DNA of 63,691 nt, the filler included, from Neolecta irregularis DAH-3 (lineage: Eukaryota), in assembly GCA_001929475.1 (NCBI GenBank). It is 11 parts of 11 records of this genome, joined end to end, with 100 filler letters (N's around TTAATTAATTAA, not from the genome) between each part and the next. Parts side by side here need not be neighbours in the genome. Positions count along the whole stretch, not along the records: positions 5,929 to 18,710 come from LXFE01003363.1; 10 more parts are not named here. One strand, given 5' to 3'. Within the stretch, counting starts at the first letter, position 1; each line of letters opens with the position of its first letter. The notes beneath the pieces were generated by a model, which saw only the letters and a program-made list of their open reading frames with translations, did no database searches and was not told where the DNA came from. Shown here in pieces: positions 6,116 through 61,108 of the stretch. The translations under genes were made by a program, and so were the position numbers.

Positions 6116-7258
6116 ATGAACGCGCTGACGCTGCTCGCTGCAAAAGTCGACCAGGCCGCGCGCCGCTCTCCCGCGGCCCAGACATCGCCGCTCCCGCAAT
6201 TAAACGCCTCATTAAAAGCCTCCCGCTCGCCTATTTCTTCCTCTTTCGCCACTTTCTCGTCTTTCGCCAGATCCATCCTCGCTTTCGTCCTCCGTATTCT
6301 CCTGCTTCCGCTTAAAATCACAGCGCGCTGTCTATATCGAAATGTATTCAGCCGCTTCTCCCTCTCGAAACCACCAATATCCGACGATCCCAGAACTCCA
6401 TCCTCCTCGGACGAAACAGAAGGCTCAATGGCTTCAGCACGCTCAGTCTTTTCAATTTCTTCAACACGCCGGTCTCCGCGCACTCGTCTGTCTAGCCAGT
6501 CTCACGCTTCTCTAAAATCCCCAAATTCCCCAGACGGCCTCGAAACAGATTGGCTCAAAACCATTCCGCACCCACCAAGACCGCTAATCCCCAAGAAAAT
6601 GCCCGCAAAAACACTCGTCCTCGATCTCGACGAAACCCTGATTCACTCCCTGGTAAAGGGCGGCTCCATGGCCGGCGGGCATATGGTCGAAGTCAAGTTT
6701 GACAGACACGCCATTCTCTATTTCGTCTATAAACGCCCTTTCTGCGACCAGTTTCTCAAAAAGGTGCGGCGTCTTTTGCACCGCTGCTCAGTCCTTGTCT
6801 AGGTTGCAAAATGGTATAATCTGGTCATTTTCACAGCAAGCGTGCAGGAGTATGCCGATCCAGTCATCGACTGGCTCGAAAGCGACCGAAAATACTTTAA
6901 AAAGAGATACTACCGCCAGGTAGATCCTTGTAGATCCCACCGTATTGATACCCAGCATTGCACATTCAAGGATGGGTTCTACATCAAAGACCTGGGAAAG
7001 ATACACGACGATCTCTCAAACATCATGATCTTGGACAATTCGCCCCGAAGCTATATCTCCCATGAAGGTAAAACTACACAGCGCAGCCTCGTCTGATAGG
7101 CAGAAAATGCCATTCCAATCGAAGGTTGGATCAGCGATCCGTCAGACCTCGACCTGCTATGTCTGGTTCCTTTTCTCCATAGTCTGCGATTCGTTACAGA
7201 CGTCCGAACGCTGCTCGGCCTGCGACTAATGGGAAACAGAGACCCGCTGCGGCTGTGA
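6116..7258 (+). CDS. NEM1: Nem1/CTDNEP1-family (NIF/FCP1-like) phosphatase, 4 exons
   Basis: [38 protein letters not shown] and [15 protein letters not shown] after removing 3 introns. Confidence 0.88.
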
Positions 7259-8756: not shown

Positions 8757-10811
8757 ATGAGGGGCTTCAAGAATAAAGTGGTATGCCTTACTAATCGTTT
8801 TGAATACAAATTGACCCCCCGTCACAGCTTGCGCGAACTAAGAATCATGACAAGGGCGTTCTTTCATTGAAACGGAAGGACAGCGTCGATAAGAAATCGG
8901 ATAAAAAGGATTCAAAATCAAATGAAAAGCAAGACAAAAGTTCGCGCGTGGAACAAGCAACACCTCTCTCCAAACCCATTTCCAGCCCATCTCTGGTGGT
9001 TACTCCATCGCCAGTAATCGTAGGTTGTTTGCACTTTTATATTCTGAAAAGGGTCTAGTATGCTTCTCCGCCAGGTGTTGCGGAAACTATGCCCGGAGAT
9101 CTTGTTTTGCCAGCTAAACATGGACCAAAGGGAAGTGCTTTTGAACGACTTCAAGTTACTCCAAAAGACGTTACACTATCAGAAACGATGAAAACTCCAA
9201 AAAGACATTCTTCCTCTCGTTTCAGAATAAGTGAATCTCGTGAATTGGAAAAGCTGCCATCGTTTCAGGGTACCCCTCTCCCCCTTTCTTTTAAATGCTA
9301 AATTCTTCAAAAGAAGTTTCTCCTCCGAATCGACAAGACTTGTTTCTGCGAAAACTGGATCAGTGTAACGTAATATTCGATTTTGCCGATGCTGCAGGCG
9401 ATATCAAAAGTAAAGAAATCAAACGAGTTGCATTACATGAATTACTGGACTATGTCGCCAACAACCGTGGCGTGATAACAGAACCGCTTTATGGAAAAGT
9501 CGTTACTATGGTAGTATTGCCTTTTTCGTTTGATTTAACTTGTAGTTTTGCAACAACTTGTTTAGACCTATACCTCCCCCTGTCAATCCTATCGGCGAGA
9601 TATTCGATCCAGAAGAAGATGAACCGGTTTTGGAAGTAGCTTGGCCTCATCTTCAAGTAGTCTATGAGTTTTTCTTACGATTTCTCGAGTCGCCTGACTT
9701 CAATACAAACGTTACAAAACAATACATTGATCATCAATTTATCCTACAAGTGGGTCCTCTTTATTATGATCATTGTTTTAAATGGATAGTTATTAGAACT
9801 CTTTGATAGCGAAGATCCGCGCGAACGAGACTTTTTAAAGACTACTTTACATCGAATTTATGGAAAGTTTTTGAATTTACGCTCATTTATTCGCCGGTCG
9901 ATTAACAATGTGTTTTTCCATTTCGTATACGAGTCTGAACGATTCAATGGAATCGCCGAACTTTTGGAAATTCTCGGAAGGTATGCCGTTTTCTTTTTTT
10001 GAATAGAATGTTCAGACGGTAGTATTATCAATGGATTTGCTCTACCGCTCAAGGATGAACACAAGATGTTTTTGGGCCGAGTGTTAATTCCACTGCATAA
10101 ACCAAAGACATTATCAATGTATCACCCTCAACTGGCTTATTGTATCGTTCAGTTTCTGGAAAAGGATCCTAGTTTAACAGAGGAGGTTTGTCAAGGAGTG
10201 GTTATTATGCTGATATCAGGTTATCCTTGGACTACTGCGATACTGGCCAAAGATAAACAGCCCGAAAGAGGTCATGTTACTAAATGAGATTGAAGATATC
10301 TTTGAAGTCATGGAACCCTCTGAATTCGTCAAAATCCAAGTTCCTTTATTCCACCAATTGGCAAAATCGGTATCGAGTCAACATTTCCAGGCATCATCCT
10401 CTTTAAAGATTCGTTTAATTTAAAAAGGTTGCTGAACGAGCTCTTTACTTTTGGAACAATGAATATTTTTGTAATTTGGTCAGCGATAACGTGAATACGA
10501 TACTACCAATCATGTTCACCGCGCTATATGAAAACTCTCAGAATCACTGGAACAGGTTCTCGGTCTCTACATTTGGGGGTTTAATGTATAGAACAATACA
10601 TGGAATGATTTACCATGCACTAAAGATATTTATGGAAATCAGCCCGGCCTTGTTTGACGAACTCACAAGTGAATACAAGATTATGCAAGATGAACTTCGC
10701 AGTCGTGAACAAGGTCGACAGTTGATGTGGCAGAGAGTCGAAACAGCTGCTCGTAAAAGAATTTCTAGCGGTCTAGTCAAGGATCCGATGACCCGTACTG
10801 CATTTTCATAG
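8757..10811 (+). CDS. RTS1: PP2A B' (B56) regulatory subunit, 10 exons
   Basis: [39 protein letters not shown] and [16 protein letters not shown] (the last needs a GC-AG intron at 10391-10427). Confidence 0.93.
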
Positions 10812-11069: not shown

Positions 11070-12717
11070 TCAATACTCTGCATATAAGACTTCTGCAGCA
11101 CTGCTTTGTACTGAAGGCGCCGAGGGAATGTTGCGAAGACGCTCGACTGTTTGTTCTCTGGATTGTAAATTAAAAGAAGATGGAGGAAGTACATTAGGTG
11201 GTCCAGATATGCGCGAGAATTCTTATTATCCATGCTATTTGGGGGTATACAGATCTTGTAATCTGGCCCAAAGTATCCGATATACTCGTTGAAAGGAATA
11301 TCTAACCTTTAATAAACCAAGGTGGATAAGAAATACCTTCGGCCAGTTCTTCGCCTAGTAGAATTGCTGTTTCATAAGTCCAAGCACGAGCAACATTTTT
11401 GATGGTGTAGCCTCCCTGTGAGGCGGGTTAGTACAATGTGGACAAGGATACATACTCCACCCAACGCAATGAGGGGAATGTTGAAGCTTTTGACAAACTT
11501 TACAGCTTCGGCATGGCCGTGCACTGAAAGATTGAAACATCCTAGTTTATCGCCCGCAAGAGAGTCGGCACCACACTGTAACACTATAGCCTCTTGTTGT
11601 GTCAGAGTGTAAAGAGGGGGATATATACCCGGACGATAGAATTGTATGATACGGCTGATTATTGGTTTGAATACGCTTTCATAAGTTAGATCGTCAATGC
11701 CGTCATTCAAAGGGATGTTGACAGAGTAGTTTTTCCCTGGGCCTATACCTACGTCTCCTAACGCACCTAGGCGGTGAGCGACATAAAAGCAGAATATAAC
11801 CGGTTCCAGGAAAGAACTGGCCAAACTTGTGGAATGAGCATGTCTATAGTAAGATGCTGCTGATGGTGATAGATACCATCACACGATCTGTGGTATAGAA
11901 GAATTCTTCGACGCCGTCTCCATGGTGAATGTCTATCTAACAAGAATGAGCGCGGTCAGGGGCAAAGAGCAGGGCACGTCAATGTACAAGACTCGTTTGT
12001 GATATCTAGGAGTAAGCGAGGGCGGGACGGCTAGTTTACTTTAATAATTCGAGAATGCTCAATACAATGTCGTTGACATAGCAAAACTGGCTTGTCAGTG
12101 TTGGATGCAGCAGTACAGGATACGCCTGATGCTTCGCGTTTCTTTGCATGGTGTAGCCCGCCAGACCAGCTGTATCGTCAGCCAGAATTGACGAATAGAT
12201 CTTGTGCTTGATTGCAATGTCTGCGTCGCCGGAATTGATGCGATCAGCGGCAGAAATAGAACCACCGGCCGAGATGCTGCAGAACTCAAACAAACCATCA
12301 AAGACGGGGCAGTCATCACCAACATTGACTGCCGAGGGTCAGCATGTTATAGCGCTGAGAAGAAAAACAGCGAGCCTGGTGAGGGACGAAGCGGTCCATT
12401 GTTTCTGGCGATACTCTGCTTAGAAAATCGATATACTCGTCGGTGTGGCAGCGGGTCATGTCCTTGGCGGAGGCTCTACGGGGCGTCTGGGCGGTTACAA
12501 TTGAAAAAAAGCAGAGCAAAACGAGAAGATCCATCTTGCGATCCAGACGGTATCCGACAATCAGCGCATGGGTCATGGCCATCCGCAACGGCTTCATTGG
12601 ATGGCCAGGCGCATAGTGGAATGCGCCTACATCAGCTGGATATCAGCAAAAATACATGGTGGATTATGGATCACCGTCAAAAAAATAGGCGATCCGGGGT
12701 GAAGCGGATGGGGACAT
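11070..12717 (-). CDS. clr6: Class I histone deacetylase (Clr6/Rpd3 type), 14 exons
   Basis: [63 protein letters not shown] and [16 protein letters not shown] after removing 13 introns. Confidence 0.92.
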
Positions 12718-12959: not shown

Positions 12960-15110
<2,151 letters not shown>

Positions 15111-15554: not shown

Positions 15555-16906
15555 ATGAACTACATTGCCCAGCCTTGTCGTTTGCCGGATATTCTTTTGG
15601 TCCATGGCACTGAGCCGTATAATGCAGAGACTCCCTTGCATCGTATTAGACGATATCAAACACTTTGATAATTCTTCAGTTTTAAACGAGAATTGCTCAT
15701 TGTTGGATCCTCGGACTATATTCAGACGGTCAGACGATACTGTCTGTATCTAACCTGTAGTAATCATGGTCCTCTTCCAAATATTCGAGAGAACGATCAT
15801 ATTCTTTATATCAACGGTCTTATCGAACAACCACTTGAACTAAATATGGTCCAACTCAGGAAATTCGACAAACATACTGTCGTAAGTGCTATACAAGTAT
15901 GTTGATGTCGCATGGACGAGTAACAGAAAGTGTGCTGGTAATCGCAGGTCTGAAATGTCAGAAACGGAAACTACACAAGGTCTTCAATGGCGAGCTGGAA
16001 CAATTTCAAATTGTTCATATAGCGGCGCACGGATCGGTCATATATTAAAAAAAGCAAGATGTAGGAAAACAACTGGATTGCATATTGTCATCGCATGTGA
16101 TATACAGAAATGTGATGAAGATGGTAAAACTTTCAGCTCGAGTGACGCTCAGTTTAAGGCAACTATGAGACAAGCATTCCAATCGAAAAAGCAATGAGTG
16201 AAGAGTGTTTGCTGGCATACGAGGTTTTTACTTGTTTCGAAGCTGGACTAATTCTCTAGATGAATGGAAAAGTGTTACCTCGAGAACACGGGTTTCCTGT
16301 AAGAGCGGTGATACCAGGGTTTGCTGGTGCCAGAATGACAAAGTTTGTGACAAGAATTACTGTCCAGGAGAAAGAGAGCAGTTCTTATTATCAGCAACAT
16401 GACTATAAAATTCTCCCACCGCATGTAGATGGGGTCTGTTTTAGGTATTGACATTTAGATTACATCACAGCAACAGGCTTCAGCATACTGGTCAAATGTT
16501 CTCTCGATACAAGAAATGCCTGTGAATTCTGCTATAACGAGCCCTCAGAGCGGTGAAGCTGTGATTAGCAAGGAGGGACGTGTTGAACTTACAGGATATG
16601 CCGTTGCCGGGCCTGGTGGTTGTGTCAAGAGTGTTTATGTAGGAGATGGAGACCATTGGATTGAAGCAAATCTTCAGAAATCCAGCGAACGATGGGCCAT
16701 GGTCTTTTGGAATACTACACTTTTAGATGTGACACCAGAGACAGTCATATATTGTCGAGCTGTAGATGAATCTGGCAAGCTTGATGGTTTTAGCAAAGAC
16801 TGACATGACAGGTAATACTCAACCAAAAAAAGCTGCCTGGAATCTCCGTGGGGTATGCGAAAATTCCTGGCCAAAGGTGCAGAATCTGCTATATAGCGAC
16901 GTATGA
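15555..16906 (+). CDS. Sulfite-oxidase-family molybdopterin oxidoreductase without a cytochrome b5 domain, 8 exons
   Basis: PYNAE, RNHGPLP, QCAGNRRSEM, AYEMNG..LPREHGFPVRAVIPG and RAVDESGNTQP..WNLRGV. Confidence 0.85.
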
Positions 16907-16967: not shown

Positions 16968-17651
16968 CTAATCCATTCTCATGTAATAGTCGACTACACG
17001 TAAGAAACATTCGAGATGGAAGATATACTGGCAGCTGAAAAGGCTGCGAATCCCGCGCAACCCAGAGCAGCAGCCTGAGGACCTGCTTTCATAGCTAAAG
17101 CACCACCAGTTATACAACCCGCCGCAATACCGTTATACATGTCGTTTTTTGCACGGTACTCAAGTTATTCCACGGCATCGAGGATGGCTTGTACCGATTC
17201 AATACAACACTCTGTCCCAGCAAATATCGCACCCACCATGGCGAAACCTTTTGCTGATGAAAATGTCCTCTTACCCATATCTTTGAACCCTACTCTCATC
17301 TGTTCTTTGAAGGGTTTTTCAAGAAAAGCGGGATCTGCATTGTGCATATCCATAGAGGACCTCTAATAAATATTTCTAGTCTGCCGCAGAAGCGTACATG
17401 AAAGCACCGAAAAGCGCACCGAAACCGAATCCTAGAGCTGAGTTTTTTGCAGATGCTTGCTGTACCTGCAACCCCGGATAAACCAGTTTTGAACACACAT
17501 GAATCCTGTTGTCCATGAGATAGAAATATGCCTAGTGAACAAATACCATTGCTTTTTGCATCATTAGAATTTGCTGCTGCTGCTGCTGCTCCTCTGTTGC
17601 TTGCTCCAGTGCATTAGTATGTGTATGGATAGGCGAAAAGGGATAATTCAT
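16968..17651 (-). CDS. TIM22: Mitochondrial inner-membrane translocase Tim22, 6 exons
   Basis: [73 protein letters not shown]. Confidence 0.9.
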
Positions 17652-17734: not shown

Positions 17735-18400
17735 ATGTCAGCAGTCGTAGCTACAGCTATTCTATGTCTCACGCTGGTGCTGTGAGTGCAACGATACATG
17801 TTTACTAGCAGGGTTACTACGCTGGTCAGGGCGGTTCGTTATGCTGGGTTTCGTCGTGGTCGTCAGCCAAAAGACGCCGTCATACACATTTATCTGACGA
17901 ATCTTGCTCATCGGGTGAAGATGCAGAGATTGAGGAACAACAAGCACAATTGAACAAATTGGCCGCTCAAGAAGACTGCAAAATGGCACAAACATGGTGA
18001 TGAGTGCCTTCTAACCACCAGGTATTCATTGTTCGAACAGATCTGGAGATGGGAAAGGGGAAAATTGCTGCGCAGGTGCCCTATCACCAAAAGAATTGTT
18101 TTTTCTTACAAAAAGTGCTGTCACGCCGCAGTCAAAAACGTTCAGTCAATCCAACGAACGAATCCCTTCTTGTTACGAAAATGGGAGTCCTCTGGTCAAG
18201 CAAAAATTGTTCTCAAGTGCGGATCGGAAGAGGAAATGTTGCGCTTACAATGGATTGCACGAGAGGGAAATCTTTGTGCGAATAGTATCCAAGATGCCGG
18301 ACACACACAAATAGCTGCGGGAAGTCGCACAGTATTGGCGATTGGACCTGGTCCTAAAAGCTCAATTGACAAAGTTGCTGGGCATTTGAAACTGCTTTAA
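17735..18400 (+). CDS. PTH2: Peptidyl-tRNA hydrolase 2, 4 exons
   Basis: [58 protein letters not shown]. Confidence 0.9.
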
Positions 18401-20014: not shown

Positions 20015-22682
20015 ATGATCCGGCTGCCACTGCCCCTGCTGCGGGCGCCACTCCCGCTGCCCCTGTGCCGCCTCCTGTTTGCAGAACGACGGTTCTATCT
20101 AGAGACTGGTCGGTATCACGCTCGGCAATATCGCTCCCGCTCCCCCAACCACTACCCCCAGGCTGTATCCATGTCCACGTCCGCTGCCGCGCTCCCGCCC
20201 TGGCTGTCTCCGCCTGCGGCCAGCCCCACTTCCGCTCCCGCCCTCTCCGTCTGGAACTCCCTGACCCGCTCCAAGGCACTGCCGCCCCTGTTTTCCCTCT
20301 CAACCACTCACTCGCCAGACCGCCTTTGTTCCCATCGATCCCCGCCGCGTCTCCTGGTACAGCTGCGGCCCCACGGTCTACGACGCAAGCCATCTGGGCC
20401 ATGCACGGTGCCCTCTCCCTCTGCTCGCGCCCTCCTCTGACATTTCAGAAACTACGTCACCATAGACATCCTGCGTCGTATCACCGAAGACTATTTTGGC
20501 TACAATGTGACCTTTGTCCAGAATGTCACAGACATCGACGACAAAGTATCCCCGCCCACCAATCCCTCTGACTCGAGATCATAGACCGTGCCCGAGAAAA
20601 TTATCTTTACGAGCGATATACGTCGCAACACCCATCTGCCTCCCCCAAAGTTCTCGAGAAAGTCTCCGCCGCCTGGGAAAAATACAGAGAGTCTCATTTT
20701 CCCTCGTCTCCTCCCGGCCTTGCTGATTTCGTTCGCTGGTCATCCACTCTCGACATCTCCGCAGAGACCGCCAAAGATCAAAAATTCCCTCTCAGGCTAA
20801 AGGCTCTGAAAGTGTCCGCCGCCGCCATACAGTCTCCTTCCGCAACATTTTTCGACAATGTCAGGGATATTTTGGTTCCTGTCTTGGACAGCGAGGTGAG
20901 TCATTTTTTCTACCAAACTGTTTGCTAAATAAATTAGCAAGGCGCATCAGTCGAAGACCCTTCAATTTTTAGATCTTTGGCTGCCTATTGGGAACGACAA
21001 TACGACCTAGATATGGCCAAGTTAAATGTACGGCCCCCGACCGTAATCACTCGAGTATCAGAATATATACCTCAAATCATCGATTTTGTAAAGAAATTAA
21101 TCGATAAAACCTTTGCCTATGAGCATGAGGGAAACGTCTACTTTGACTCGATAAATTACGACAGGAACGGCTATTCTCCTTACGTAAAGCTCGAACCTTG
21201 GAATAAGGGAAATCAAGAATTGATTGCGGATGGGGAAGGGTCTCTCTCGAAAACGACCGGCAAACGTGCAACTAGTGACTTTGCGCTCTGGAAGAAGAGC
21301 AAAGCCGGTCATCCAACCTGGGATAGTCCATGGGGAAAGGTATTATTACCATGTCAAAAGTATCTCAGCGTCTAGGGTCGACCGGGTTGGCACATCGAAT
21401 GCAGCGTGATGGCTTCAGAAGTTTTAGGTGAGCAAATCGATATCCACACCGGAGGAATCGATCTGGCTTTTCCGCATCACGACAATGAGCTTGCCCAGTC
21501 TGAAGCTTACCATGGTTGCAAACAATGGATAAACTATTTTCTTCATACAGGCCATCTCCATATCGAAGGTTTGAAAATGAGCAAGAGTCTCAAGAATTTT
21601 ATCACAATTCAAGAAGCGCTTGAAAAATATTCTTCCAGACAACTACGCCTAGCCTTTCTCCTACAACAATGGAACTCTGGAATTGATTTTAGAGAAAGCC
21701 TAATCAGTGAAGTAAAGGGCTTTGAGAAAACCATGACGGTATCCATCCTATTTTCACCATGTTCTAAATCCAAGAATCTCTTTACCAATGTCAAAGCTTT
21801 GAAAAATGAACATAATGAAAGTGTTGGCAAAGGCCTTACTATCCCCTATCAATATGCCAAACATGAACGCAATCTACTAAATTCGTATGGTTCAAGTCGT
21901 CTAAAACTCCTAATAATAGGCTTGATACATCTCAGAAACGACTCCATGAAGCCCTTTGTGACAACTTTAATACACCTTTAGCCGCGCAAATTTTACTTGA
22001 ACTCGTCAACAAGACAAACATCTATTTGTCGAGCACGCGCAGTGATGCTAATATCTGTCTTGTAACCGATGTTTCATCATGGATTGTCAAAATCCTAGGT
22101 ATTTTTGGCTTTGAAATGAGTCAACTTGGGTGGGCCTCTGCTCAAAACGCTCCTTCTGTATTTCTTGAAACTAAAAGTTCTAACATGTAGTCTGAAAATA
22201 CTGTCATGCCGTATCTTCGAGTCCTCTCATCATTCAGAGATCAAGTTCGATCATTATCAATTGACAAGGCTCCTCATTCCCGTATATTAGCTTTATGTGA
22301 TCGGATACGGGACTTTGATTTGGCGGAACTCGGTGTGTCGCTTGATGATCGCGAATACGGAGCCGCCTTGATCAAATTTGTTGATCGGCAAGATTTAGTT
22401 GCTCAACGTGAAGCCAAGTTCGCGAAAGAGAAGGAAAAAGCCGATAAAAAAGCTGCAATGAAAACTGCAGAAGATGCCAAAAAGAGAGACCGTCTTGAAA
22501 AAGGAAAAACTGTACCCTCTGAAATGTTCAAAACTGCAGAATACAGTCAGTGGGACAATAATGGAATCCCGATACTCGACAAGGAAGGTGTGGAAGTGAA
22601 TAAAAGTCGACGCAAGAAGCTGATAAAAGAATGGGAACTTCAGAAAAAGCTACACGAAGAGTACTTGCTATCAATGAGATAA
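20015..22682 (+). CDS. CRS1: Cysteinyl-tRNA synthetase, ~9 exons; second in-frame ATG at 20171
   Basis: [60 protein letters not shown] and KMSKSLKNF. Confidence 0.94.
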
Positions 22683-25742: not shown

Positions 25743-26623
25743 TTATAACCCACGAACAAAGACAACGGTATGGAAATTCTTAACCTCTGAATTTTCAAAC
25801 AGCTCGCTAGTCTTTAACACTTCGCCGCTCTCGACGTGCCATAGACTCAATTTCAACCAATCAGCTCGAGTATTAGAGCAAAATTATACCTGGTCTAAAT
25901 TAATTGTATTATTGACGTTCCGTAATCCCATCCTACCAGTTAGCTGAAGCCTGAGAAGATGTCCACATACATTGTAGCTAACCGATCTAAAACCTTTCCA
26001 TTACTCCAATCTTTTGATACGAAAACCTCCATTTTGGAGTTTCTTGACTTTTCGCCAGGAGGAGCTTCGATCCAAAACCAAACTCTCTTTTCCTGAGGAA
26101 CTTTATCGTCGCCTTTTGCCAGTCTTTTCATTTCTACGATATTATGTTTTGGACCGGGCCTTTTGAGCAAAGCCTGCTTCCTCTCTTCTCCCCACTTCTT
26201 AATTCGTAATAACGCTGATCGTTGTGATTTCTGGAAGGGCGTCTCTGGTGCGCCTGAACAATTATGATCGATTGCATGCCGATCCTTGAGACAATAAATA
26301 TTTCTGCAAATGCATATTGTTCCTGGCGAAGTAGTATCGTTTAGTTCTGTTAAACATTTTGCGCATTTGCCGGTCGCCTTTGAGTTTACTGGCCATTTAT
26401 CTGATATCGGCGATGGGGAATTCTTTTTGGCAAGAAATTTACAAGAGTGTATTTCTGCTTTCCAGTGTTCGTTGCAGAACTTGAGGTTGCAGAATTCGCA
26501 TCTGAATGGGAGAAAATCTAGTATCCTGATTAGTTGTTGCAAAGTCACTGTAAATAAACCAAGCTGTCGACATTCGGCACAGCGGTCCCCTATTTCTTCA
26601 AATTCGCCGACTTGTTGTTCCAT
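25743..26623 (-). CDS. AN1-type zinc-finger protein with C-terminal ubiquitin-like domain (Cuz1/ZFAND1-like), 4 exons
   Basis: IGDRCAECRQLDFLPFRCEFCNLKFCNEH, a second AN1 finger YCLKDRHAIDHNC, KRLAKGDDKVP, GKVLD, NVNN...KLSLWHVESGE...TVVFVRG. Confidence 0.82.
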
Positions 26624-32109: not shown

Positions 32110-33891
32110 CTATACTCCGCTACCGCTGGCCTTTTCCAATATTTCATCGTCGTTATCAGAGTGCCTTAACTTCCTAAAGGCGCGTTTTAGGAATCCGCTG
32201 CCGCAGTCCCCATCCTCACGCGCAGTTGAATCAGGCGGGCTATATGTTCTACTTGTAAGTCCAGTCAACTCGAGAAAACGTACGGTGATGATCGCTTTGC
32301 GTTCTTATCGCCAATGGAATCGGCGAGTTGCTCCAACAGCAATTGCTCATAGGGAGACCATGATCTTGGGGATATTAGCATTCGATTTCCATAAAAGAGC
32401 GCACTTTGGAAATTGAATTTGGAACTCAACTTTCATATCCCCTGGATTCTGCAGTCGGGACTTTTGAAGTTTTGGAATTCCTTTCCCAGGCAGGATCAGG
32501 GTATCTCCAGGTGACACTCCTTGGGGCACCTTCACGTCGACTTCTCCCTCTAATGTTGGTATGGAAATCTGACCTCCAAGTGCGGCTGTGGTCATCGGCA
32601 CTTTGGCCGTATATAGAATATTGAAGCCTTTCCGCTTGAAGAATGGGTGCTCTTGCACACGAATATGAACATATAGATCGCCTTTTTGCCTTCGCTGGGA
32701 TCCTCTATCGGAGGGTGGAGTGTCTCCTTCTCCAGTAACTCTGAGTTTCATTCCATCCTCGACACCTGTATTATTAGAAATGGCTCCCAACAGTATATAC
32801 TACCAGCGGGAATATCAATAGTCACCGTCTTTGACTCTCTTAGGATACCCTCTCCTCCACAACTACTGCACTCCGAACTTTTAGGAATAGAAATTCCAGA
32901 ACCATCGCAAGATTCACATTTCGAAGCCATTTGGAAACCGCCTTGCATGATATGAACACGATGGCCACTCCCACCGCATCGTTTGCACGACGCTCTTTTA
33001 GCGCCTGATTTAAGGCCTGACCCCGAACAAGTTTTACAAGTGGTCAAGGGTTTGATATGAACCGATCTCTTGACCCCTTTGGCGGCATCTATGAAGGAGA
33101 TAGAGATGGGGGCCTACAATTAGTGTATGTCAGAGAATATATCATACATCAATATCCTCTCCAACCATGGTTTGTTGCCCGAATCCACCGAACGACGAAC
33201 TCTGCCCATGCCCATTCGCAAATCCAAACAAGTCGCCAAGATCAATATTCGTAAAGCCCGGGAATCCAGTAAATGATCCAGATTCTCCTTGAGCACCTGC
33301 GCCCCCAAAACCTTGATCAAACGCCACTGAACCCAGTTGATCGTATTGCGTTCTCTTTTGAGGATCTGATAGAATCTAAGATATGACTTCTAGACTAGAA
33401 AAACGACCGGGTATATTACCTCATAAGCGTGTTGTACTTCTTGAAACTTTTCTCGGGCGTTGGATTCTTTGTTGGAATCGGGGTGATATTTCTTCGCTAA
33501 CTAGATCATTAATTTTCTAATATCATTGGTCAAAGTCGTACCGAATAATAAGCAATTTTGATATCTTTGGCGTCTGCGTCTTTGGAGACCCCAAGGACTG
33601 TATACGGATTCTTTGCGCGTTCATTTTGGCTAGCACAAGCATGAAATTTTGATTTCAGAATAGTTAGTATCTCTTTTGTATTTCAAGAAAGCGTACATGA
33701 TGTGATATCCTGGGTCTAACCATCGGCCTAACCCCCACATTAAGATAAAACGTGGCGGACGTTGTGGGATTTCTCGTCGATGTGTTGAATCTACGGTGAT
33801 GCAGATTCAAATTCTTCTCAGCATCGTAAAGGCAGCGGATCGGATTATGACGGTATTTCATCAATGGTTCAAATGCTCTGGCACTGGCCAT
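32110..33891 (-). CDS. MDJ1: Mitochondrial type I DnaJ chaperone, multi-exon
   Basis: [18 protein letters not shown] region, CxxCxGxG repeats, [20 protein letters not shown] and [13 protein letters not shown]. Confidence 0.9.
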
Positions 33892-34817: not shown

Positions 34818-37566
34818 TTACTGCATAACAACGCTGGTCCCGTCCATAAACCTGGTTCGGTATATTCGATTTGCGTTTGAGAACATGCCTTCTTTCAAGC
34901 TTACAACGATAAACTGGGAGCTGCGGCAATTAGTTGTTTTAAGTGAACCCATAGGCTTACCCTTTAAATCTAGTCTTAATCAAGCGTCCGATATTTTGGG
35001 TATGACTTAAATCTAACGCAGCGTCAACTTCATCAAGAATGTACATTGGTGCTGGCTTGAACTGCAAGAGCGACATAATTAATGCTAATGCGATCAGAGA
35101 CCTGTTATTAGCATGCTATTTCATTAGAAAGTAGCATACCGTTGACCTCCACTCAGTTCAGTCAAACTTTGTTTCCAAACTTTCCCAAGACATACTCTGA
35201 CTTCCAGTCCATCTGAGATATTCTTCCCTTCGGGCGCCTCTAATTTTGCAAAATTTCCAGGTAATAATTCTGCAAATATTTGTCCAAAATCACCATTAAC
35301 TTTCTCCCAAGTCCGTTGCAAGGCTTCTTTTTTATATTCATCGAGCGTAGATATTGTCTCCTCGATTTTCCGTTTATCGCGTCGGACAGTTTTAAGCATT
35401 GTCTTCAAGCTGGATTCTTTCTTTTCGACGCTGTCGATCATGTTCATTACTTTTGCATTAACTTTCTTCTGCAAGCCTTTGAAACGTTCTGTCAATGATT
35501 TTAAGTTATTTTTACATTCAGAAATGTTTTGATTCGCAAAATAATACGGCGTCCCTTGTCGACCAAAGTTGCTATTCCGTAAGACTTGAATACTATTTAA
35601 TTTCGGGAACTTACCTCTTCTCATCACCGATCCACTCGTGCTCGCGTTCCATTTGGACTAATAGACTCTCCACGCCTTGAAGTTCTTTATGGAATTTCTC
35701 GACCTCATGGCGAAGTTTCTGTAACTCTAATCCACTCTCCGTGATTTCAGAATTCTTCTGCCGTGAGGCTTCTTCAAGACTCTTCAACTCATCGTCAAAA
35801 CTGATCATTTTAGCTCGCTCGCTTTCCATTTCAGCGTTGATGAAATCATATTGGTCCTTGATCTTTGAATGGTCTTTATGTAGTGACTGGAGCTCTGATT
35901 GTTGGATTTGTAGTGTACTATTTGCGTCGTCGAGTTGTTCTTGAGCCGCTCCAAGGTCGGCTCCTAATTGTTCTGCATCATGAGTTAGATATCACCAGAA
36001 ATCAATGATACCAGCTTCCAGTTGTATTGTCTGGAATTCTCTCTTGCAATCTTTAACATTTGTACTTTGTTTCAAGATTGAAGCCTTGAGATCATCAAGT
36101 TCTTTCTGGAAATGTTAGAAATTTGTCGATTGCGCAACACACCTGGAGTTCCTTTAGTTTTCCATCCTTATTGTTCTTGAACTCGTTCATGTCCTTCTCA
36201 ATCTTTCTGACATCTTTTGAAGCGTCATCTCCTTTATTCTTTGCTTCAATCATTACCAGTTTCAATTCCCCAATCCGTTTTTTCATGTCTTCAACTTCAT
36301 GAATCAACTAGACCAGTGAGCATTCTCATCGCGATCTACATGCCTTTGAATGCGAATTACTGTTGATCTGTTCCTCGGTAAGCCTTAACTCGTGTCTCTT
36401 CAAGTCCAATTGTTTTTTCAGCGTTTTGGCTTCCGTATTCTTCTCTTGATCCATGTTCATCTGCCGCTCGATAGCATCAAACTCCCTCTTATAAATATTT
36501 ATTTCACGGGTGACTTTGTTTAATTTTTGAAGATGAACTAATAGTCCAGAAGTGCTGACACTGCTGCCACCACTTAACGTACCCGAAGGGTCATAAACAT
36601 CCCCTTCCAGCGTGACACTTTTCAATCGGACAGATGGATTGAATGTTACAGTTTTGGCGGTATCGGCGTCTGCACAAATTAATGTCGAACCAAAGACATA
36701 TTCCATTGCGGCGGAGACTTCACTGTCATATCCTACAAGAGATAACGCAAGGTCGACTTTTCCAGGGGCGAGTTGGTGAGCTGAATCGATTTTCTTTCAT
36801 AGTCAGCATTTTAAGAAGCAATAGGTACCTCTGCTGAAGCGCGAAAGGCGGAAATCCGGTTGAGTGGAATGATAGTTACTCGTTTCCTAAGTTTTCCTTT
36901 CTCAAGGAGTTGAGTTCCTATCACTTCGTTTTCGACGACAACCTATAGTTTTAGTTTTGCTATGAGAAAAATTGCACATTATACAATCTACCACCTGCAC
37001 ATATTTCAAGAGCAGTAGCAGCTTTGAACTTTTCCTGATCCAAAGAGAATAACTGAGCAACGAGACCTTTGACTTTACTCCGATCGAAGTTTGGCGTTGG
37101 ATCCGAATACACAAAGTCAATATTTGCCGCTTTGCGACTAAGATTATCCGCATTCTAACCAATTAACCAAATTTTGATGGAAAAATGGTGCCTCATGCAG
37201 TTCATTGATCATTGCTTGTAATTCGGCTTTCCTAGAAAGATTCGCCTGTTCAGTATCTTCGTTCCAATCAAGATTCTGTAATTCATTTTCCAACCTTGTA
37301 CCCTCAATTCTATGGCTTTCTAATTCTTTCAGCGCGGACATATTCTGATCACGGGCTTTTTTGGCTCGTGGTTCATCGGTTTTAATCTGTTTTTCTAGAT
37401 GCGAGATCTTCAATTTCGCTTGTTCCGATTCCGTTTGGGCATTGGAGATTCGTGTTTTGGCATCTTGCAATTGATCCATGTAGCCAGCATCGTGTCCTTC
37501 CTTTGCAGCCACTCCAGTAATTAGAGTTTGCAATAACTCTTCTTTCGACGATACTTGCTGTTGTTG
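34818..37566 (-). CDS. SMC2: Condensin subunit Smc2/Cut14; 5' part lies in the gap
   Basis: Hinge [63 protein letters not shown] and [12 protein letters not shown]. Confidence 0.95.
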
Positions 37567-38800: not shown

Positions 38801-41607
38801 TGATTCTTTTATCTGCAACGGTCCCAAATACTCTCGAGTTCGCCAGTTGGGTTGGCCGAACGAAAAAGAAAGATATATATGTAATTTCCACACTAAAAAG
38901 GCCGGTCCCGCTGGAATATTTTCTTTGGGTAAACAAGTCGCTGGTCAAGATCGTTGACTCCAATATGAATTTCCTGACGCAAGGGTGACCACTTATCTTT
39001 GGATCCAAGAAAACTAATAATTATAGTTACAAGGAAGCAACCCTTTTAATAAAAAAGCCCAAGGTAACCAAACCTTCTAACGATGCACGAGGTAGAGGTC
39101 AAAAGCATCAATCAACGAATCATCTTGGAAGAGCAAATATTCGGTCACAAACGGACAAATATGTGTTTGTGCATCTGGTAGATTATTTGAAGAAGCAAAA
39201 TCTTCTTCCCGTGGTTGTCTTTGTGTTTTCAAAAAAGCGATGTGAAGAATATGCCAGCACGCTTTCGAACATTGATCTCTCCATCCACTCTGAGAAATCC
39301 GAGATACACATAGCTATTGAGAAGGCAGTAGCTCGTTTAAGGGTTGAAGATCGCCTTCTGCCTCAGATTGCTCGCATGCGAGATTTTCTCGGTCGAGGAA
39401 TTGCTGTCCATCATGGTGGTCTGTTGCCAATCGTCAAAGAAGTAACATCCTCTTCCAAACCATAAACTCATACTAGATTGTAGAGCTGTTGTTTGCCCGC
39501 GGACTGGTCAAAATACTCTTCGCTACAGAAACTTTTGCAATGGTTTCTTCCCTTTTTTTTTAAACGTGTTCAATTATCAGGGTGTCAACATGCCCGCTAA
39601 ATCAGTGGTCTTCTCTAGCATGCGAAAACACGATGGTCAAAGCCTCCGTGACTTACTTCCTGGAGAAATGACGCAAATGGCAGGAAGAGCAGGGCGGCGA
39701 GGACTCGATGTCACTGGCACTGTTATTATTCTTTCTGGACCTGACGAATTACCAAGCGTAACAAAAGTTTCACAACTCCTTATGACATTGTAGTCGACTA
39801 TGTTGTCATCTATTATCCTTGGAAAACCGTCCAAGCTGGAAAGCCAGTTCCGACTGACTTACAATATGATTTTGAATCTCTTACGGGTAGAGACTTTGAA
39901 AATCGAAGAAATGATAAAACGAAGTTTTAGCGAAAATGCAACGCAGTCATTGTTTCCAGAGCAACAGCAGTTAATTACTCACTCTGAAAATTCCTTAGCA
40001 TCGCTCTCTGTTCCAGAATGTGATATCTGCAAGCAGGACCTTTCGGATTGTTATTCCTTAATTATCAAGGCTGCCAAACTACGATGTGCAAGACATACAA
40101 AGGCTATAACGCTTCCGCTTGGCCACCGAATTCTAGCTCCTGGAAGATTTTGCACAATTCGCGAGGATGCATGGTTTCATTTTTGAATAGCTCTGATTAC
40201 CTAGTCCTCGTCGATATACTTGGCAGTGTTACTTAGCGATTTCAGGCATATGGGCCAAGTCCTTCCAACGTGCAAGGGTCTACGGTTTTCACAGAGTTTA
40301 AAAGGCAATCCCAGAAATTGTTTCTGTTTTAACAGACAGTTGGTTCACTGCCATATCTCGGTCCACTTTGCAACTTTTTCCCCCAGTTTTCCTTATTGGA
40401 CAAACCAAATCCATGTCTCTTTAGTATCGATCAAGTCGAATCTATCACCGATTGCGCTTTAAAGGTACTCTTTCCTTCTTTTCTGCTTTTGATATGCAGA
40501 TCAAATCCCCAGAAATCTTGAGCGGTAATGTTGAAAGTCTGCAGAAACTGCAAGATTCTTTTCAGGACTTGTGGCAGCATAACCCTGCTTTTGTCAAAAG
40601 CGAAACGAGCTGGCTCAAGAGCAAGGACGTCGAATTACAAGAGCTCGTGGCAAAATATGAGGGAGCTTTAGTCGGTATCGAAAAAAGTCATTGCATCAAG
40701 TGCCCCAAGTTTTCTTCGCACGTATGAATCTATCTGGGAGTATTGCTTATAAAAGTTTGCGGCATTACATCAAATCGAGACTGTGAGACTGCAAATTCAC
40801 GATTTGAGGCAAACTATGTCAGATCAAAACCTCGAATTGATGCCCGACTACCAACAGCGACTCGCCGTCCTCAGAGATCTTGAGTTCATAAATGAGGACG
40901 CGAACGTACTTTTAAAAGGCCGAGTAGCATGTGAAGTGTGTCTACAATATCCTGTACATGCTGAATATTTTCGCAGATTAATTCTGCGAATTCTTTGGTC
41001 ATCACAGAGTTGGTTTTGGAAAATTTGTTGGTGTCGTTTGAACCAGAGGAAATAGCGGCTTTGCTTTCAGCTTTTGTCTTTGATGAGAAATCCGAGATTG
41101 AGCAGAGTATTTCAGCCCACTTAGAATCGGTATATACTCCAACTTCGCTACTGATTGTCGCAGGGAAAGGAACAAATTTTGAGGATCGCTGAACATGTTC
41201 AAGATATAGAACTAAAACGTCAAGTATCTTCTCTTAATGAAGCCAACATTCTTGGCAATATTCCACGGTTCAGTCTCATGGAAATCGTGTATGAATGGGC
41301 TCGCGGAATGGCATATTCTTTCTCAAATGCGATAGCTGATGAGTGCAGAGTTTCAAACAAATCACGGAGCTCTGCGATAAATCGGAAATATATGGTGTTT
41401 CATTTGAGGGAAGTATAGTGCGCACGATCACAAGACTTTATGATCTTTGCAGAGAAGTCAGAAATGCTAGTAGAATTATTGGAGATACAGCATTATACGA
41501 TAAGCTCGAAACTGTATGTCCTTTGTTCATGGAATAGATTTAACTAGCGCAAGACCATGTCGATGCTGAAGAGGGACATAGTTTTTGCGCCATCTTTGTA
41601 TTTTTAA
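38801..41607 (+). CDS. SKI2: Ski2 DExH RNA helicase; 5' part lies in the gap
   Basis: [76 protein letters not shown] and [11 protein letters not shown]. Confidence 0.93.
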
Positions 41608-42656: not shown

Positions 42657-43254
42657 CTACGAACATTCAGCATCTCGAAGTGCTTCCCAGTCGTCCAGAT
42701 CGCTTTGGCCATCATGCTCTGTAACAAAAGGGCATGACGGGAGGCTATTCTCTATGGGAAGGTCATCGTCTATGATCTCGTCTGGACCAGTGTTTTCCAT
42801 ATCACGGGAAACCTGCTGAACCTGCATGGGCACGTCAGAGGCATCTGATCCGGTTGGGTCTGCAGGCGGGTGCCGCAAGTCGTCGAGATACCGCTGACGC
42901 GCGAGCCTGAGCGTTTTGGACCGCCCGGCCTTTTCGACCATCTTTATAGTGTCGCGGAAGGTTGATTTTGGAAACAGCTCGTGCATCCACAGCTGATAGA
43001 ATTGGAGCAGGCGTCCCAGGTCTGCATGCTGGCAGGAGGTTAGTGGGACGGAGCACAGAAGATACCTCATGGCCGTGGCGGTGGAGGCGCAGACGGGTGG
43101 CCGCATGGCGACGCAGCTTGGGCAGACCAGCATCGGAGAGCAGGCTGCGGAGTCAGCGGCGGTGAGCCGATACGGCAGACCGGGCATCGTCGAGGCGGGC
43201 GCGCGGTTTGCGGGTAGCGACAATAACTTCGTCATCGACACGGACGCCGGCCAT
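42657..43254 (-). CDS. CSM3: Replication fork protection subunit Swi3/Csm3/Tipin, 3 exons
   Basis: RKPRARLDDARLLSDAGLPKLR and [38 protein letters not shown]. Confidence 0.85.
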
Positions 43255-43328: not shown

Positions 43329-43931
43329 ATGGCCGCTCCCCGGTTCAAGGCGCCTGCTGCAAAATACCCGACCATCGACATCGACCCGCACTTTTCGCGC
43401 GTCGTGGGCTATGCGCGTCCTGTCGACTGGGCGATTACCGCTGCCTGTACTGCTGCAGGCCCGGCTTTGATGGCGGTGATGAGTGCGGGTCATGTTTTGC
43501 GGCTATTGACCACACAGACGAACTGTCGCCCGTCCGCGCCCGCATCAACCGGCCCGTCTTTTTCCTCTCTTCCACCCTCGGCCTCTTTGGCGGGTTTCTA
43601 CTCGCATACAAGCGTTCCAGCCGTGCGTAGTCCCGCATAGTGGAGCTAATCTGCAGTCCGTTTCTGGGGCTGGACGGAAAATGCACGGGAGCAGGAGATG
43701 GACATGCGGGAAATGACGCAGCGGATTCTCGATGGCAAGCCGCTCTACGGCACCTCAGAACTCTCGCCCCATATGCAGGGCGTCGCCGCCCGCAACTCGC
43801 GCTACTCCGTCCTCATGTTCACCACCATCCCCTGGTTCAACTTTGTCAACCACACCGAGCACGGCGTCGATACCGCAAAGTACTACCAGAACGCCGCCGC
43901 CCAAAAAGAAGCAGCCGCCCCCTCTTCTTGA
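43329..43931 (+). CDS. NADH:ubiquinone oxidoreductase 21/20.9 kDa accessory subunit (NUXM), 3 exons
   Basis: YPTIDIDPHFSRVVGYARP, RFWGWTENAREQEMDMRE and PWFNFVNHTEHGVDTAKYYQ. Confidence 0.88.
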
Positions 43932-46285: not shown

Positions 46286-47392
46286 TTATTGTCTTCTGGG
46301 AGCTGGTTCTCGATCTTTAACCCGAAAATCCCTCTTTGCTTTAGAAAAATCTTTCGTGGGTAGTCCCCATCTCTTCAGTCGTACAACCAAACATGTAGAA
46401 TTGTCTTCCGTACCAACCCTTTCCGCAAACTTGACTACTCGAGAACTCGCTTCTTGAGGACTCGCCGCATGTTTCACGATATCAACGACTTCCTGGTCTG
46501 ACAAGACATCGCCGATTCCATCCGTATACATTACCATAAACGCATAATCCTGCAAATCGGATACTGTAATTAATTCAGGCTCGGCAGTTACACCCAATTT
46601 CTTCTGCCGTATATCTCCGAATGATCGGGTATTCGCCAATACTCCAAACAATCGTTCTTCTCCAAACGGGTCAACATAAACCGAACAAAAACGACGTAAA
46701 CGAGATGATTCAATTTGTGAGTCTGGATGATGAGGATGTGTAAGTGTCTTTGCTCGTCCATCTTTATCGCAAAGGATTATTCTGGCTAGTTAACTGGATA
46801 CCAATTCAGGTATACTTTGTATCTCCAACATGACCAACAATTAATTCCCCGCCCTCCCAAAATGCCCCATTATCAGAGTTTATAATGCCAACACTCGCAC
46901 AGGAACCGCTGATATCGCTAGTATTGTTTTCCCAGAAAGTATAGTCGGTTATGAGGAAACTCAGGTATACCCGTTCCTTCCAATCAAATTGAGACGATTT
47001 TGATATAAACGGCTTGAATCGGCAAAAGTACCCGCCAATCTGTCTAAAGGAGGAAATCGTCGGCTCAATATCGTCTTTCTGTGCCGTTTCCAGTGTTTGA
47101 GGAAGAGTCTGTAAAATATGGTCCACGCATTTTCGACCACCGTGTCTACAAGTCAACACTCTCCTCAGACTGCATACCCGTCAAATATTCCAAAGTACAA
47201 AGGGGAAGAGGGAAGGTCTAGTACTCCAAATTGTTGACTATCTTCATTTCCTTGTCGATTGCCGCGAGAAGAGGTATATCCAACTAAATTTGGCGAATGG
47301 TCAAGTTTAATCTCTATCGTCGGTTTATTCTGGATAGAGTGTTTTAGTAATGTCGAAAAGGCGCGAGTTAAACTTGAAGAACATGTGCGCAT
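46286..47392 (-). CDS. Mitochondrial PP2C phosphatase (Ptc6-like), 3 exons
   Basis: SSRGNRQGNED, FGIFDGHGG, GHVGDTKIILC, LANTRSFGD, TDGIGD and EDNSTCLVV. Confidence 0.85.
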
Positions 47393-59318: not shown

Positions 59319-61108
59319 ATGGACAGTCCAACTTCAAAGATTGGCGAAAATGTTCGCGTAGTAGTGCGTGTGCGCCCATTGAATAAGAGAGGTGAATATT
59401 TCCCAAAGAACTAGGTTTGATATCTGCAGAAATGGAACGCGGCGCTAAATGTCTAATTGCAATGGATAATGACACTCAAGCAACTTCAATTCTCAGACCA
59501 GATGCACGAGACTCTGGGAATGCTCGAGCTGCGAAAAGAGCAAGTAATGATGATTCCAAAACTTTCACCTATGATCGATCTTTATGGTCTGTCAATCCAG
59601 AAGATCCGCATTACGCCGGTCAAGAGTCTCTCTATGACTGTCTGGGTAAGGAGTTCTTGGATCATCTGTTTGCTGGGTACAATACATGCATCTTTGCTTG
59701 TAAGTGTCTATAGTACTCGTGAAGCGTTGACAAGTGCTAGATGGACAAACCGGCTCTGGGAAGACGTTTACAATGGTTTCTTCAAATGCTAGATATAATG
59801 GAGAACTGATATAGTTAGATGGGTAGTAATGATGATCCTGGTTTAGTTCCCCGGACATGCAACGATCTATTTCGTCGAGTTGACAAACTCTCTGACAGCC
59901 ACCAATGCTCAGTGCATATATCCTACTTTGAAATCTACAACGAGAAAGTTCGTGATTTACTAGCTGCTATGGTTAGCGATAACGGAGGTTTGAAAATACG
60001 AGAATCGCCGTGTGATGGTCCCTATGTTGAAGACCTCGCCGAATTCCAGGTGAGTTCGCTGGATGATGTCGAAGCTTTTATGAGCATGGGGAATAAGGCA
60101 TTATCAGACTCTTCAACTTCTTTTTTACAGATAATAGGTCCGCACAACGGCATCTACGGCAATGAATGACCAATCCAGTCGTTCACATGCTGTCTTCACT
60201 ATCGTTCTTCGGCAACTTTTCCAAGATTTAAATTCGAAATCACGTATCGAGAAGATATCCCGATTCAGGTATCTTTTCTATTACTTTACTTGTTGAAGCT
60301 ACCAGGTTGGTAGATCTAGCTGGTTCAGAACGGGCAAATGCTACTGGAGCAACGGGCATTCGTCTGAAGGAAGGCAGTAACATCAACAAGTCATTGACTA
60401 CCCTCGGACGGGTTATCGCGTCTTTGGCTGAAAATGACAATAGAAAAAAGCGCGACGTAGTCCCGTATCGAGATTCTGTAAGACACTCTTTAATTACTGC
60501 GCTTCATTTATTAGACACTCACATATATTCTTAAAGATAGCCTCGGCGGGAATAGCAAAACCGCAATGGTCGCATGTATTTCACCCTCAGATTACGACGA
60601 AACTTTATCCACTCTTCGTTATGCCGATCAAGCCAAACGAATTCGTACTCGAGCTGTCGTGAATGAGAAGGAAAACAACCTTTCAGCGAAACTTTTGAAA
60701 GATCAATTAGAAAATGTCTTATCAAGCCATGTTTCAAGAGGAGTAGAATTGGAAAATCTTAAGAAAGAAAAAGACGAGATGCGACTAATGTTTGAAGAAT
60801 GGGCTCGAAATTTGGGTATCAGCATACCTTTGCCGTCTGCTGATTTACAAGATCGCGAAAACAAAGCCCTCAAAATTGAGCGAGATGCTCTGCGGGCACA
60901 TCTCCGACTAGCTATAGAGTCCTACAAAAATCCAATACCTGTGATTTGCGAAAACAAAGAGGCAGATGTCGAGCGTGAGAAGAATGCCAAAGCAGTCAAC
61001 GATCTCCATGACGAATGGTCTGATCTTTTGCAAGATATTGGTCATTTCAAGCGGGACATTCAAGAAGATATTGCTACTTTTGCCATTGTTGCTACCACGG
61101 CTGCTTGA
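59319..61108 (+). CDS. Kinesin-3 family motor with a short tail, ~8 exons
   Basis: [66 protein letters not shown] and [14 protein letters not shown]. Confidence 0.92.

Follow-up and report, generated by a model that had tools for sequence, protein, structure and literature searches.

Very short introns with weak donors and a well-defined branch site in a histone deacetylase gene, and across a genomic window, of Neolecta irregularis

Introns of Neolecta irregularis, an ascomycete that diverged early, are best compared with typical fungal introns of the U2 type, which have a GTRNGT donor, a CTRAY branch site and a YAG acceptor, with median lengths of about 50-70 nucleotides (nt). U2-type introns with GC-AG ends tend to be rare, with a strong consensus as compensation, and U12 introns combine an extended [AG]TATCCTT donor with a TCCTTAAC-type branch. 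The tiny introns of ciliates are about 25 nt long and have been reported to avoid stop-free lengths divisible by 3. Such introns, Paramecium's among them, were reportedly treated by Jaillon and colleagues in 2008. Here we describe the introns of a stretch of 63,691 nt from N. irregularis DAH-3 (assembly GCA_001929475.1; hereafter the window), starting from a gene for a class I histone deacetylase (HDAC), the deposited name of which is Clr6.

Passages of Irimia and Roy (2008, PMC2483917) give a median intron length of 61 nt for Aspergillus fumigatus and a donor information of 1-4 bits for intron-rich species versus at least 5 bits for intron-poor ones. The fungal part of Frey and Pucker (2020) puts GT-AG introns at 98.7% and GC-AG introns at about 1% on average. 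Within the Taphrinomycotina, the intron sections of Cisse et al. (2021) describe both Neolecta and Pneumocystis as intron-rich and report 4,202 introns of Neolecta at homologous sites, with independent gain for about 26%. The Neolecta genome paper reports RNA-seq and, in its Supplementary Table 1, 4.3 introns per gene with an average intron length of 42 bp; the word 'intron' has no occurrence in its main text. Lim et al. (2021) merely name the Neolecta genome among their sources. No title or abstract giving donor, branch or length statistics was found among the papers listed for Neolecta, a search that took in, among supplements, that of the genome paper.

The HDAC gene was rebuilt from the sequence, from an ATG at 12717 to a stop codon ending at 11070 on the minus strand. 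Splicing out 13 introns of 39, 36, 40, 38, 37, 34, 41, 33, 34, 36, 40, 35 and 35 nt (5' to 3') yields an open frame for a class I HDAC of 389 amino acids (aa). Its longest exon (11456-11590) matches 'Histone deacetylase clr6 [Neolecta irregularis DAH-3]' (P0002) with 100% identity, which makes the window nuclear DNA of this fungus. The spliced model was aligned with 12 of 120 retrieved proteins, the deposited P0002 included, and at 13 of 13 junctions the alignment to the 11 homologs was gap-free; it also forces the GT/GC and AG ends of all 13 introns. Judged by this homology, the 13 introns are real. A first-pass annotation had claimed 13 introns of about 33-41 nt in 1.65 kb, a list of donors of which one has G at position +5, and branch sites about 5-12 nt from the acceptor. 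The rebuilt gene bears this out: the lengths range from 33 to 41 nt, the first six bases are identical to the listed ones in all 13 cases, G at +5 occurs only in GTATGT (11455-11416), and the A of the branch-like motifs is 6-12 nt away from the 3' end.

With 426 aa, the deposited P0002 is longer and carries insertions of 12 and of roughly 25 residues relative to the homologs. It retains the in-frame intron 2 and is translated straight through from the GC-AG intron 4 to the end of intron 5, with the 46-nt exon 5 read in a wrong frame, by which the conserved catalytic stretch is replaced. In the alignment with homologs, the GC donor GCACAA (12207-12170) is needed to regain this stretch, and no GT is present within 25-59 nt upstream of its acceptor. 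On this comparison the public protein model is wrong at introns 2, 4 and 5 and at exon 5, and the HDAC model of the first-pass annotation is thus the better of the two.

For a census of the whole window, stop-to-stop fragments were translated and scanned with Pfam, and the intron length implied at each junction was calculated by subtracting the profile gap, taken three times, from the genomic gap, an estimate which uses no splice-site information. The scans comprised 300 of 1,854 fragments, chosen for the highest coding score, as well as another 355, each at least 20 aa long, from the gene strand at 20 loci, four fragment entries being repeats of ones scanned before. At 31 of 33 colinear junctions, a G[TC]..AG pair both kept the frame and matched the implied length exactly; 26 of these 31 are GT-AG, where chance would give near 4 by a hand estimate. 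One further junction was off by 3 nt, and the PUL junction (implied length 53 nt) had no matching candidate and was dropped. Implied lengths were 32-43 nt, barring uncertain values of 47 and 53. Opi1 fragments were left out as single junctions, as were the kinase and cysteinyl-tRNA synthetase fragment pairs with further exons in their gaps.

The curated census holds 50 introns in 17 genes (Table 1). Their length is 33-43 nt, with a mean of 37.08, a median of 36.5 and a standard deviation (SD) of 2.72 nt; two introns measure 33 nt, eight 34, eight 35, seven 36, six 37, three 38, three 39, six 40, four 41, two 42 and one 43 nt. All 50 have a GT or GC 5' end and an AG 3' end, which for 32 of them was a selection criterion, and excision restores the conserved reading frame in the HDAC gene, at the Pfam junctions and in the residue-level comparisons. 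The short-intron pattern proposed for the whole window thus holds for every homology-located intron. Two stop-free, in-frame introns are invisible to open-frame logic and were found as insertions relative to solved structures: a 13-residue insertion of the kinase versus STK25 corresponds to the 39-nt GC-AG intron at 13295-13333, and a 12-residue insertion of B56 versus 8u1x_B to the 36-nt one at 10556-10591. An uncertainty of 3-12 nt attaches to one or two curated choices, namely SMC and the tandem donors GTAGTA (at 9511-9545 and 32766-32803, where two in-frame choices lie 3 nt apart and homology cannot decide). A kinesin GC candidate of exact length (60212-60254) proved to be false, the real intron having a GT donor, and the SMC GC candidate (36794-36840) was set aside by judgement in favour of a 35-nt GT candidate. 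Our own dynamic-programming gene finder, run with a flat length prior and then bootstrapped, found about 8-9 of the 13 HDAC introns together with many false introns of 50-70 nt, and its length histogram was discarded.

The donors of the 50 introns carry very little sequence information. Position -1 is G in 35 introns; +2 is T in 45 and C in 5; +3 is A in 33, G in 9, T in 8 and never C; and +4 is T in 25 and A in just 8. At +5 the bases are nearly evenly distributed (A 11, C 13, G 12, T 14), and 12/50 for G against a background of 0.22 makes this position uninformative. While the canonical fungal profile has GTRNGT with G at +5 and broad lengths with a median of at least 50 nt, only 4/50 donors match GTRNGT, 12/50 have the +5 G and the lengths stay within 33-43 nt; GTA is found in 28/50. 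Positions +3 to +6 sum to about 0.87 bit after correction, in agreement with the claim of almost information-free donors. The acceptors are TAG (20), CAG (20), AAG (8) and GAG (2), and intron interiors are poor in G (0.16) and rich in T (0.36).

Branch sites were analyzed in 48 introns, before the last two joined the census, by an expectation-maximisation motif search in the last 22 nt. The resulting motif, [C/T]-T-N-A-[C/T] with T and A at 95%, scored 243 bits as compared to 195 ± 8.5 in 30 shuffles of the interiors, above all 30 of them; YTNAY is present in 39/48 introns and CTRAY in 20/48. Given a score so far over the shuffles and the frequency of YTNAY, the branch is the strongest internal signal of these introns and the most informative one, and not loose as had been stated before. 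Measured from its A, the 3' end is 6-17 nt away (mode 8) and the donor 27.3 ± 3.2 nt. Where CTNAY occurs only once (24 introns), the distance from 5' splice site to branch has an SD of 2.5 nt and that from branch to 3' splice site an SD of 1.3 nt, with r = -0.02 between them, which indicates two separate spacings and not one compensated total length. Taking all 48 introns gives a negative correlation (r = -0.53), but this arises from mis-assigned branches and vanishes in the unambiguous 24.

The contribution of each signal was measured by ablation, with position weight matrices built leaving one gene out, in eight regions in which all introns are believed to be known (3,883 G[TC]..AG candidates of 20-100 nt, of which 34 are true introns). 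All terms together recovered 25/34 introns exactly. Recovery fell to 16 without the length term (13 with candidates up to 300 nt), to 17 without the branch, to 22 without donor context and to 24 without composition, and was 26 without acceptor context; branch, length and the T/C choice alone gave 21/34. The usable information resides mostly in length and branch and little in donor context. The earlier idea that introns are defined by a ruler of about 35-40 nt plus the branch is therefore partly supported, as a statement about information content and not about mechanism: loss of length or branch costs 8-9 of 25 introns and loss of donor context three, and what is measured are two independent spacings instead of a single ruler.

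GC-AG introns make up 5/50, in the B56 (10391), HDAC (12170), kinase (13295), helicase (41311) and kinesin (60098) genes, and at a rate of 1.3% the probability of at least five among 50 is 5e-4. Four of the five were fixed at residue level versus homologs or solved structures, the helicase one by frame and motif. All open with GCA followed by T or C, none has a G at +5, and in each of them GT is missing at 33-49 nt from the acceptor. In 35/50 introns just one GT would give a length of 33-43 nt, and the five introns with none are the GC-AG introns. In addition to the 50, a ZFAND1 intron with GT-TG ends (25854-25889) shows normal geometry by eye, its TG end lying 7 nt and its donor 28 nt from the A of the CTGAT branch. 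An AG located 11 nt upstream of this TG end precedes the branch and would break the frame. The proposal that the ruler explains GC donors and odd acceptors agrees with these frequencies and geometries; its further step, namely that the spliceosome itself uses the spacing, is one that we infer.

Intron phases, taken from the gene models, give no clear sign of a ciliate-like policing of intron frame. Lengths divisible by 3 occur in 12/48 introns (P = 0.14), ten of which contain an in-frame stop versus 6.6 expected in shuffles (p = 0.035). With the two later stop-free additions the numbers change to 14/50 divisible by 3 and 4 of 14 stop-free, which weakens the stop enrichment. Retention of the stop-free introns (12487-12522 and 11593-11628 on the minus strand; 13295-13333 and 10556-10591 on the plus strand) would add 12-13 residues.

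Compared with typical fungal U2-type introns, those of Neolecta share GT/GC..AG ends, a CTRAY-like branch near the 3' end, the lack of a long polypyrimidine tract and, presumably, recognition across the intron. They differ in mean length (37 nt, SD 2.7), in matching GTRNGT only rarely, in a +5 G at background level and in 10% GC-AG introns versus the approximately 1% given in the fungal part of Frey and Pucker (2020). Their GC-AG introns resemble other U2-type ones in replacing GT by GC next to an ordinary branch and AG; unlike the usual ones they are frequent, all start with GCA[T/C] and lack the +5 G, and the one in the HDAC gene was missed by the deposited model. With Pneumocystis, the sister lineage within the Taphrinomycotina, Neolecta shares high intron density (4.5-5 per gene in Pneumocystis), short introns and a compact genome; means of 61 nt for P. 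jirovecii and 54 nt for P. carinii, as given in excerpts of the published work, exceed both the 42 bp annotated for Neolecta and the 37 nt determined here; donor information for Pneumocystis was not encountered in these excerpts. Like Paramecium-type tiny introns, those of Neolecta have very narrow lengths near the physical minimum and ends close to GTA...YAG, but they are longer, keep a clear branch motif and include lengths divisible by 3, some of them stop-free. A degenerate 5' splice site at 4.3 introns per gene is in line with other intron-rich genomes having weak donors. However, about 0.9 bit lies at or below the lower end of the 1-4 bits given by Irimia and Roy (2008), whose background model may differ from ours, and relative to the intron-rich species treated there the Neolecta branch is stronger and more tightly placed.

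The reading that we favour, and consider probable without being certain of it, is that these are U2-type introns which have shrunk to near a steric floor and are defined across the intron by a good branch module together with two fixed spacings, donor pairing being hardly needed. In agreement with the U2 type, the ends are GT/GC..AG in all 50, YTNAY is common and excision restores conserved frames. A few donors start with GTATC[CT], as the GTAT bias predicts, and by eye the branches of these introns are CTGAC, CTTAC or CTAAC, with no U12 branch box among them. Neolecta introns would then be ordinary substrates of the major spliceosome, shrunk genome-wide to just above the spliceosome minimum (33-34 nt is the floor here), and the 5' splice site would have decayed to about a G followed by G[T/C]A. 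The signals that would remain are a YTNAY branch with near-invariant T and A, a short fixed gap of about 8 ± 1.3 nt from the branch A to YAG, a fixed gap of about 27 ± 2.5 nt from donor to branch A and, as a further cue, a G-poor, T-rich interior. Given the decayed donor and the surviving branch and spacings, intron definition would be the most likely mode, a donor being accepted for its correct spacing upstream of a suitable branch/3' module and not for its pairing with U1/U6. GC donors, and occasionally other ends, could then work where no GT competes. A stronger version, in which inspection of +4 to +6 would be largely lost genome-wide, the 5' cut would be measured about 27 nt upstream of the bound branch module with any G[T/C/A]A in a window of about 10 nt being used, and the 3' cut would fall about 8 nt past the branch even at non-AG ends, seems unlikely to us. 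Such a molecular-ruler mode would possibly be tied to altered U1/U6 or to lost proofreading factors of the 5' splice site.

A narrow length can also come from shrinkage to the steric minimum without being read by the spliceosome. According to this main rival explanation, deletion bias and selection for compactness push intron length to the floor, and specificity comes from exon sequence, RNA folding, co-transcriptional order or decay of mis-spliced RNA. The sharp lower edge and right tail of the length distribution, the independence of the two spacings, the introns missed by the full signal model and the undepleted intron-internal GTs are as it would predict, and the sections of Ma (2016) on Pneumocystis describe dense short introns, 42-49% of introns showing retention and a full set of nonsense-mediated decay genes. 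We nevertheless find it doubtful, since donors with so little context would seem to need some positional information, recovery suffers most when the length term is removed, and GC donors stand only where GT is missing at 33-49 nt (5/5). Changed machinery, by which U1/U6 small nuclear RNAs (snRNAs) or factors tuning the 5' splice site would differ in Neolecta, with +4 to +6 uninspected and short length a separate trait, might account for the preponderance of T over A at +4 and for the uninformative +5. One candidate is METTL16, which writes N6-methyladenosine in U6 and has been linked in one paper to the +4 preference; Parker et al. (2023, PMC10581693) connect METTL16 and SNRNP27K with variation of the 5' splice site. 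Passages of Irimia and Roy (2008) present weak donors as general in intron-rich species without altered snRNAs, and we regard changed machinery as quite improbable. An Rfam scan of the window gave no match, so no snRNA gene lies within it. That the short introns arise from hand-fitting GT..AG pairs around stops is hardly credible: although GT and AG are frequent, our gene finder produced many false introns and one GC candidate of exact length was false, the HDAC junctions align without gaps, lengths predicted from Pfam before splice sites were looked at matched exactly, and junctions were confirmed at residue level versus solved structures.

Several points weigh against the favoured reading. 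The census demands GT/GC..AG ends, so that other end types are missed by design, and it is limited to conserved domains, so that long introns in unconserved parts could escape; an annotation-wide mean of 42 bp, above the 37 nt measured here, hints at a tail of longer introns outside these domains. Weight matrices were built on 50 introns and branch statistics on 48. The full signal model misplaces 9/34 introns, and some information must therefore be missing from it. A model-free scan for GT..CTRAY..AG gave a weak excess at 34-38 nt (99 versus about 70 expected from 40 Markov simulations), at a background too high to be useful. Measured against a local exon rate of 4.4%, extra GTs numbered 5/247 on the exon side (one-sided p = 0.037, marginal) and 7/156 on the intron side (p = 0.62), with p = 0.10 for both sides, so that depletion of rival GTs within the permitted window is no more than suggested. 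The rule that the first GT at 33 nt or more is the donor was rejected, 39/50 being about what short distances alone give.

The 19-nt kinase micro-exon of the first-pass annotation is real, whereas the coordinates cited for it (13529-13547) belong to the second of two copies. Its three surrounding introns were placed by motif and profile continuity; the frame joined across it is continuous through the HRD and DFG motifs, and 19 + 42 nt of exon fit the 20 Pfam Pkinase positions absent between fragments (118 to 138). A 60-nt stretch occurs both before and after a 10-N assembly gap, and positions 13529-13547 belong to its second copy. On both sides of this gap (13505-13514) and of another one (41807-41816) stand identical copies, 60 and 62 nt long, respectively, which look like unmerged assembly overlaps; the first doubles the micro-exon and parts of its flanking introns (13445-13574). 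The 10-N gaps at 23175 and 48032 have no flanking copy.

Table 1. Features of the HDAC gene and of introns elsewhere in the window (positions along the window; length in nt).
Feature	Position	Strand	Length	Remarks
Class I histone deacetylase gene (deposited name Clr6)	11070..12717	-		14 exons, 13 introns, 389 aa once spliced
HDAC intron 1	12636..12674	-	39	GTGATC..CAG, branch CTGAT
HDAC intron 2	12487..12522	-	36	GTTTTG..CAG; divisible by 3, stop-free in frame; retained in deposited protein
HDAC intron 3	12329..12368	-	40	GTTTTT..CAG, CTGAC
HDAC intron 4	12170..12207	-	38	GC-AG (GCACAA..CAG), CTGAC; absent from deposited model
HDAC intron 5	12087..12123	-	37	GTATCC..CAG, CTGAC
HDAC intron 6	12006..12039	-	34	GTAAAC..TAG, CTTAC
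HDAC intron 7	11937..11977	-	41	GTGCCC..TAG
HDAC intron 8	11844..11876	-	33	GTATCT..TAG, CTTAC
HDAC intron 9	11767..11800	-	34	GTTATA..TAG, CTCAC
HDAC intron 10	11593..11628	-	36	GTATAT..AAG, CTGAC; divisible by 3, stop-free in frame
HDAC intron 11	11416..11455	-	40	GTATGT..CAG, CTAAC; sole HDAC donor with +5 G
HDAC intron 12	11302..11336	-	35	GTATTT..TAG
HDAC intron 13	11158..11192	-	35	GTACTT..CAG
NIF phosphatase intron	6764..6802	+	39	Pfam junction
NIF phosphatase intron	7068..7103	+	36	Pfam junction
B56 intron	9511..9545	+	35	tandem GTAGTA donor, 3-nt ambiguity
B56 intron	9750..9789	+	40	Pfam junction
B56 intron	9981..10022	+	42	Pfam junction
B56 intron	10186..10219	+	34	Pfam junction
B56 intron	10391..10427	+	37	GC-AG (GCATCA..AAG), residue-level fix
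B56 intron	10556..10591	+	36	in frame, stop-free; 12-residue insertion vs PDB 8u1x_B
STE20-type kinase intron	13222..13256	+	35	Pfam junction
STE20-type kinase intron	13295..13333	+	39	GC-AG (GCATCC..CAG), in frame, stop-free; 13-residue insertion vs STK25 4nzw_B
STE20-type kinase intron, 5' of micro-exon	13424..13458	+	35	first copy of duplicated flank
Kinase micro-exon	13529..13547	+	19	second copy; other copy 13459-13477
STE20-type kinase intron	13548..13581	+	34	GAG acceptor
STE20-type kinase intron	13624..13660	+	37	
STE20-type kinase intron	13777..13809	+	33	Pfam junction
Molybdopterin oxidoreductase intron	15897..15930	+	34	Pfam junction
Molybdopterin oxidoreductase intron	16124..16158	+	35	profile implied 32
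Molybdopterin oxidoreductase intron	16224..16259	+	36	Pfam junction
Tim17 intron	17159..17194	-	36	GAG acceptor, Pfam junction
PTH2 intron	18076..18115	+	40	Pfam junction
Cysteinyl-tRNA synthetase intron	20408..20448	+	41	Pfam junction
Cysteinyl-tRNA synthetase intron	21340..21375	+	36	Pfam junction
ZFAND1 GT-TG intron	25854..25889	-	36	outside the 50; sole frame-compatible choice
DnaJ intron	32766..32803	-	38	tandem GTAGTA donor, 3-nt ambiguity
DnaJ intron	33501..33541	-	41	Pfam junction
SMC hinge intron	36794..36828	-	35	preferred over 47-nt GC candidate; least certain entry
Ski2/Mtr4-like helicase intron	41130..41163	+	34	Pfam junction
Ski2/Mtr4-like helicase intron	41311..41348	+	38	GC-AG (GCATAT..CAG); frame and motif
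Swi3 intron	43029..43065	-	37	Pfam junction
Complex I 21-kDa subunit intron	43483..43517	+	35	Pfam junction
PP2C intron	46782..46815	-	34	Pfam junction
RdRP intron	50943..50976	-	34	Pfam junction
RdRP intron	51900..51939	-	40	Pfam junction
Kinesin-3 intron	59700..59740	+	41	Pfam junction
Kinesin-3 intron	59776..59818	+	43	Pfam junction
Kinesin-3 intron	60098..60137	+	40	GC-AG (GCATTA..TAG), residue-level fix
Kinesin-3 intron	60269..60305	+	37	replaces false GC candidate 60212-60254
Kinesin-3 intron	60478..60514	+	37	Pfam junction
Vps16 intron	61518..61559	-	42	Pfam junction

Intron density is uneven along the window. The RdRP gene (50074-53498, minus strand) has two located introns in about 3.4 kb of long open fragments versus 13 in the 1.65 kb of the HDAC gene, and TFIIB (44515-45393) and the mitochondrial S7 gene (26816-27748) give one long open fragment each. 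A Harbinger-type transposase (HTH_Tnp_4 and DDE_Tnp_4) is encoded at 37668-38636 (plus strand), and a Ty3-type pol fragment with RNase H and integrase at 61767-63512 (minus strand) has an open frame of 582 aa in which no introns were found. At eleven places, for example at 5829-5928, 18711-18810 and 24412-24511, the pattern 44 N, 12 bases, 44 N recurs, presumably either masking or a scaffolding convention.

Standard gene finders mis-model genes of this kind, as is illustrated by the deposited HDAC, which loses its catalytic motif, and stop-free in-frame introns, if read through, add 12-13 false residues to the kinase and to B56. Comparative work based on the public Neolecta proteome or on its intron counts (e.g., Lim et al., 2021; Cisse et al., 2021) inherits such model errors. 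If the profile holds genome-wide, Neolecta would represent the fungal extreme of intron miniaturisation and would provide a natural test of the minimal sequence need of the spliceosome and of spacing as a replacement for donor pairing.

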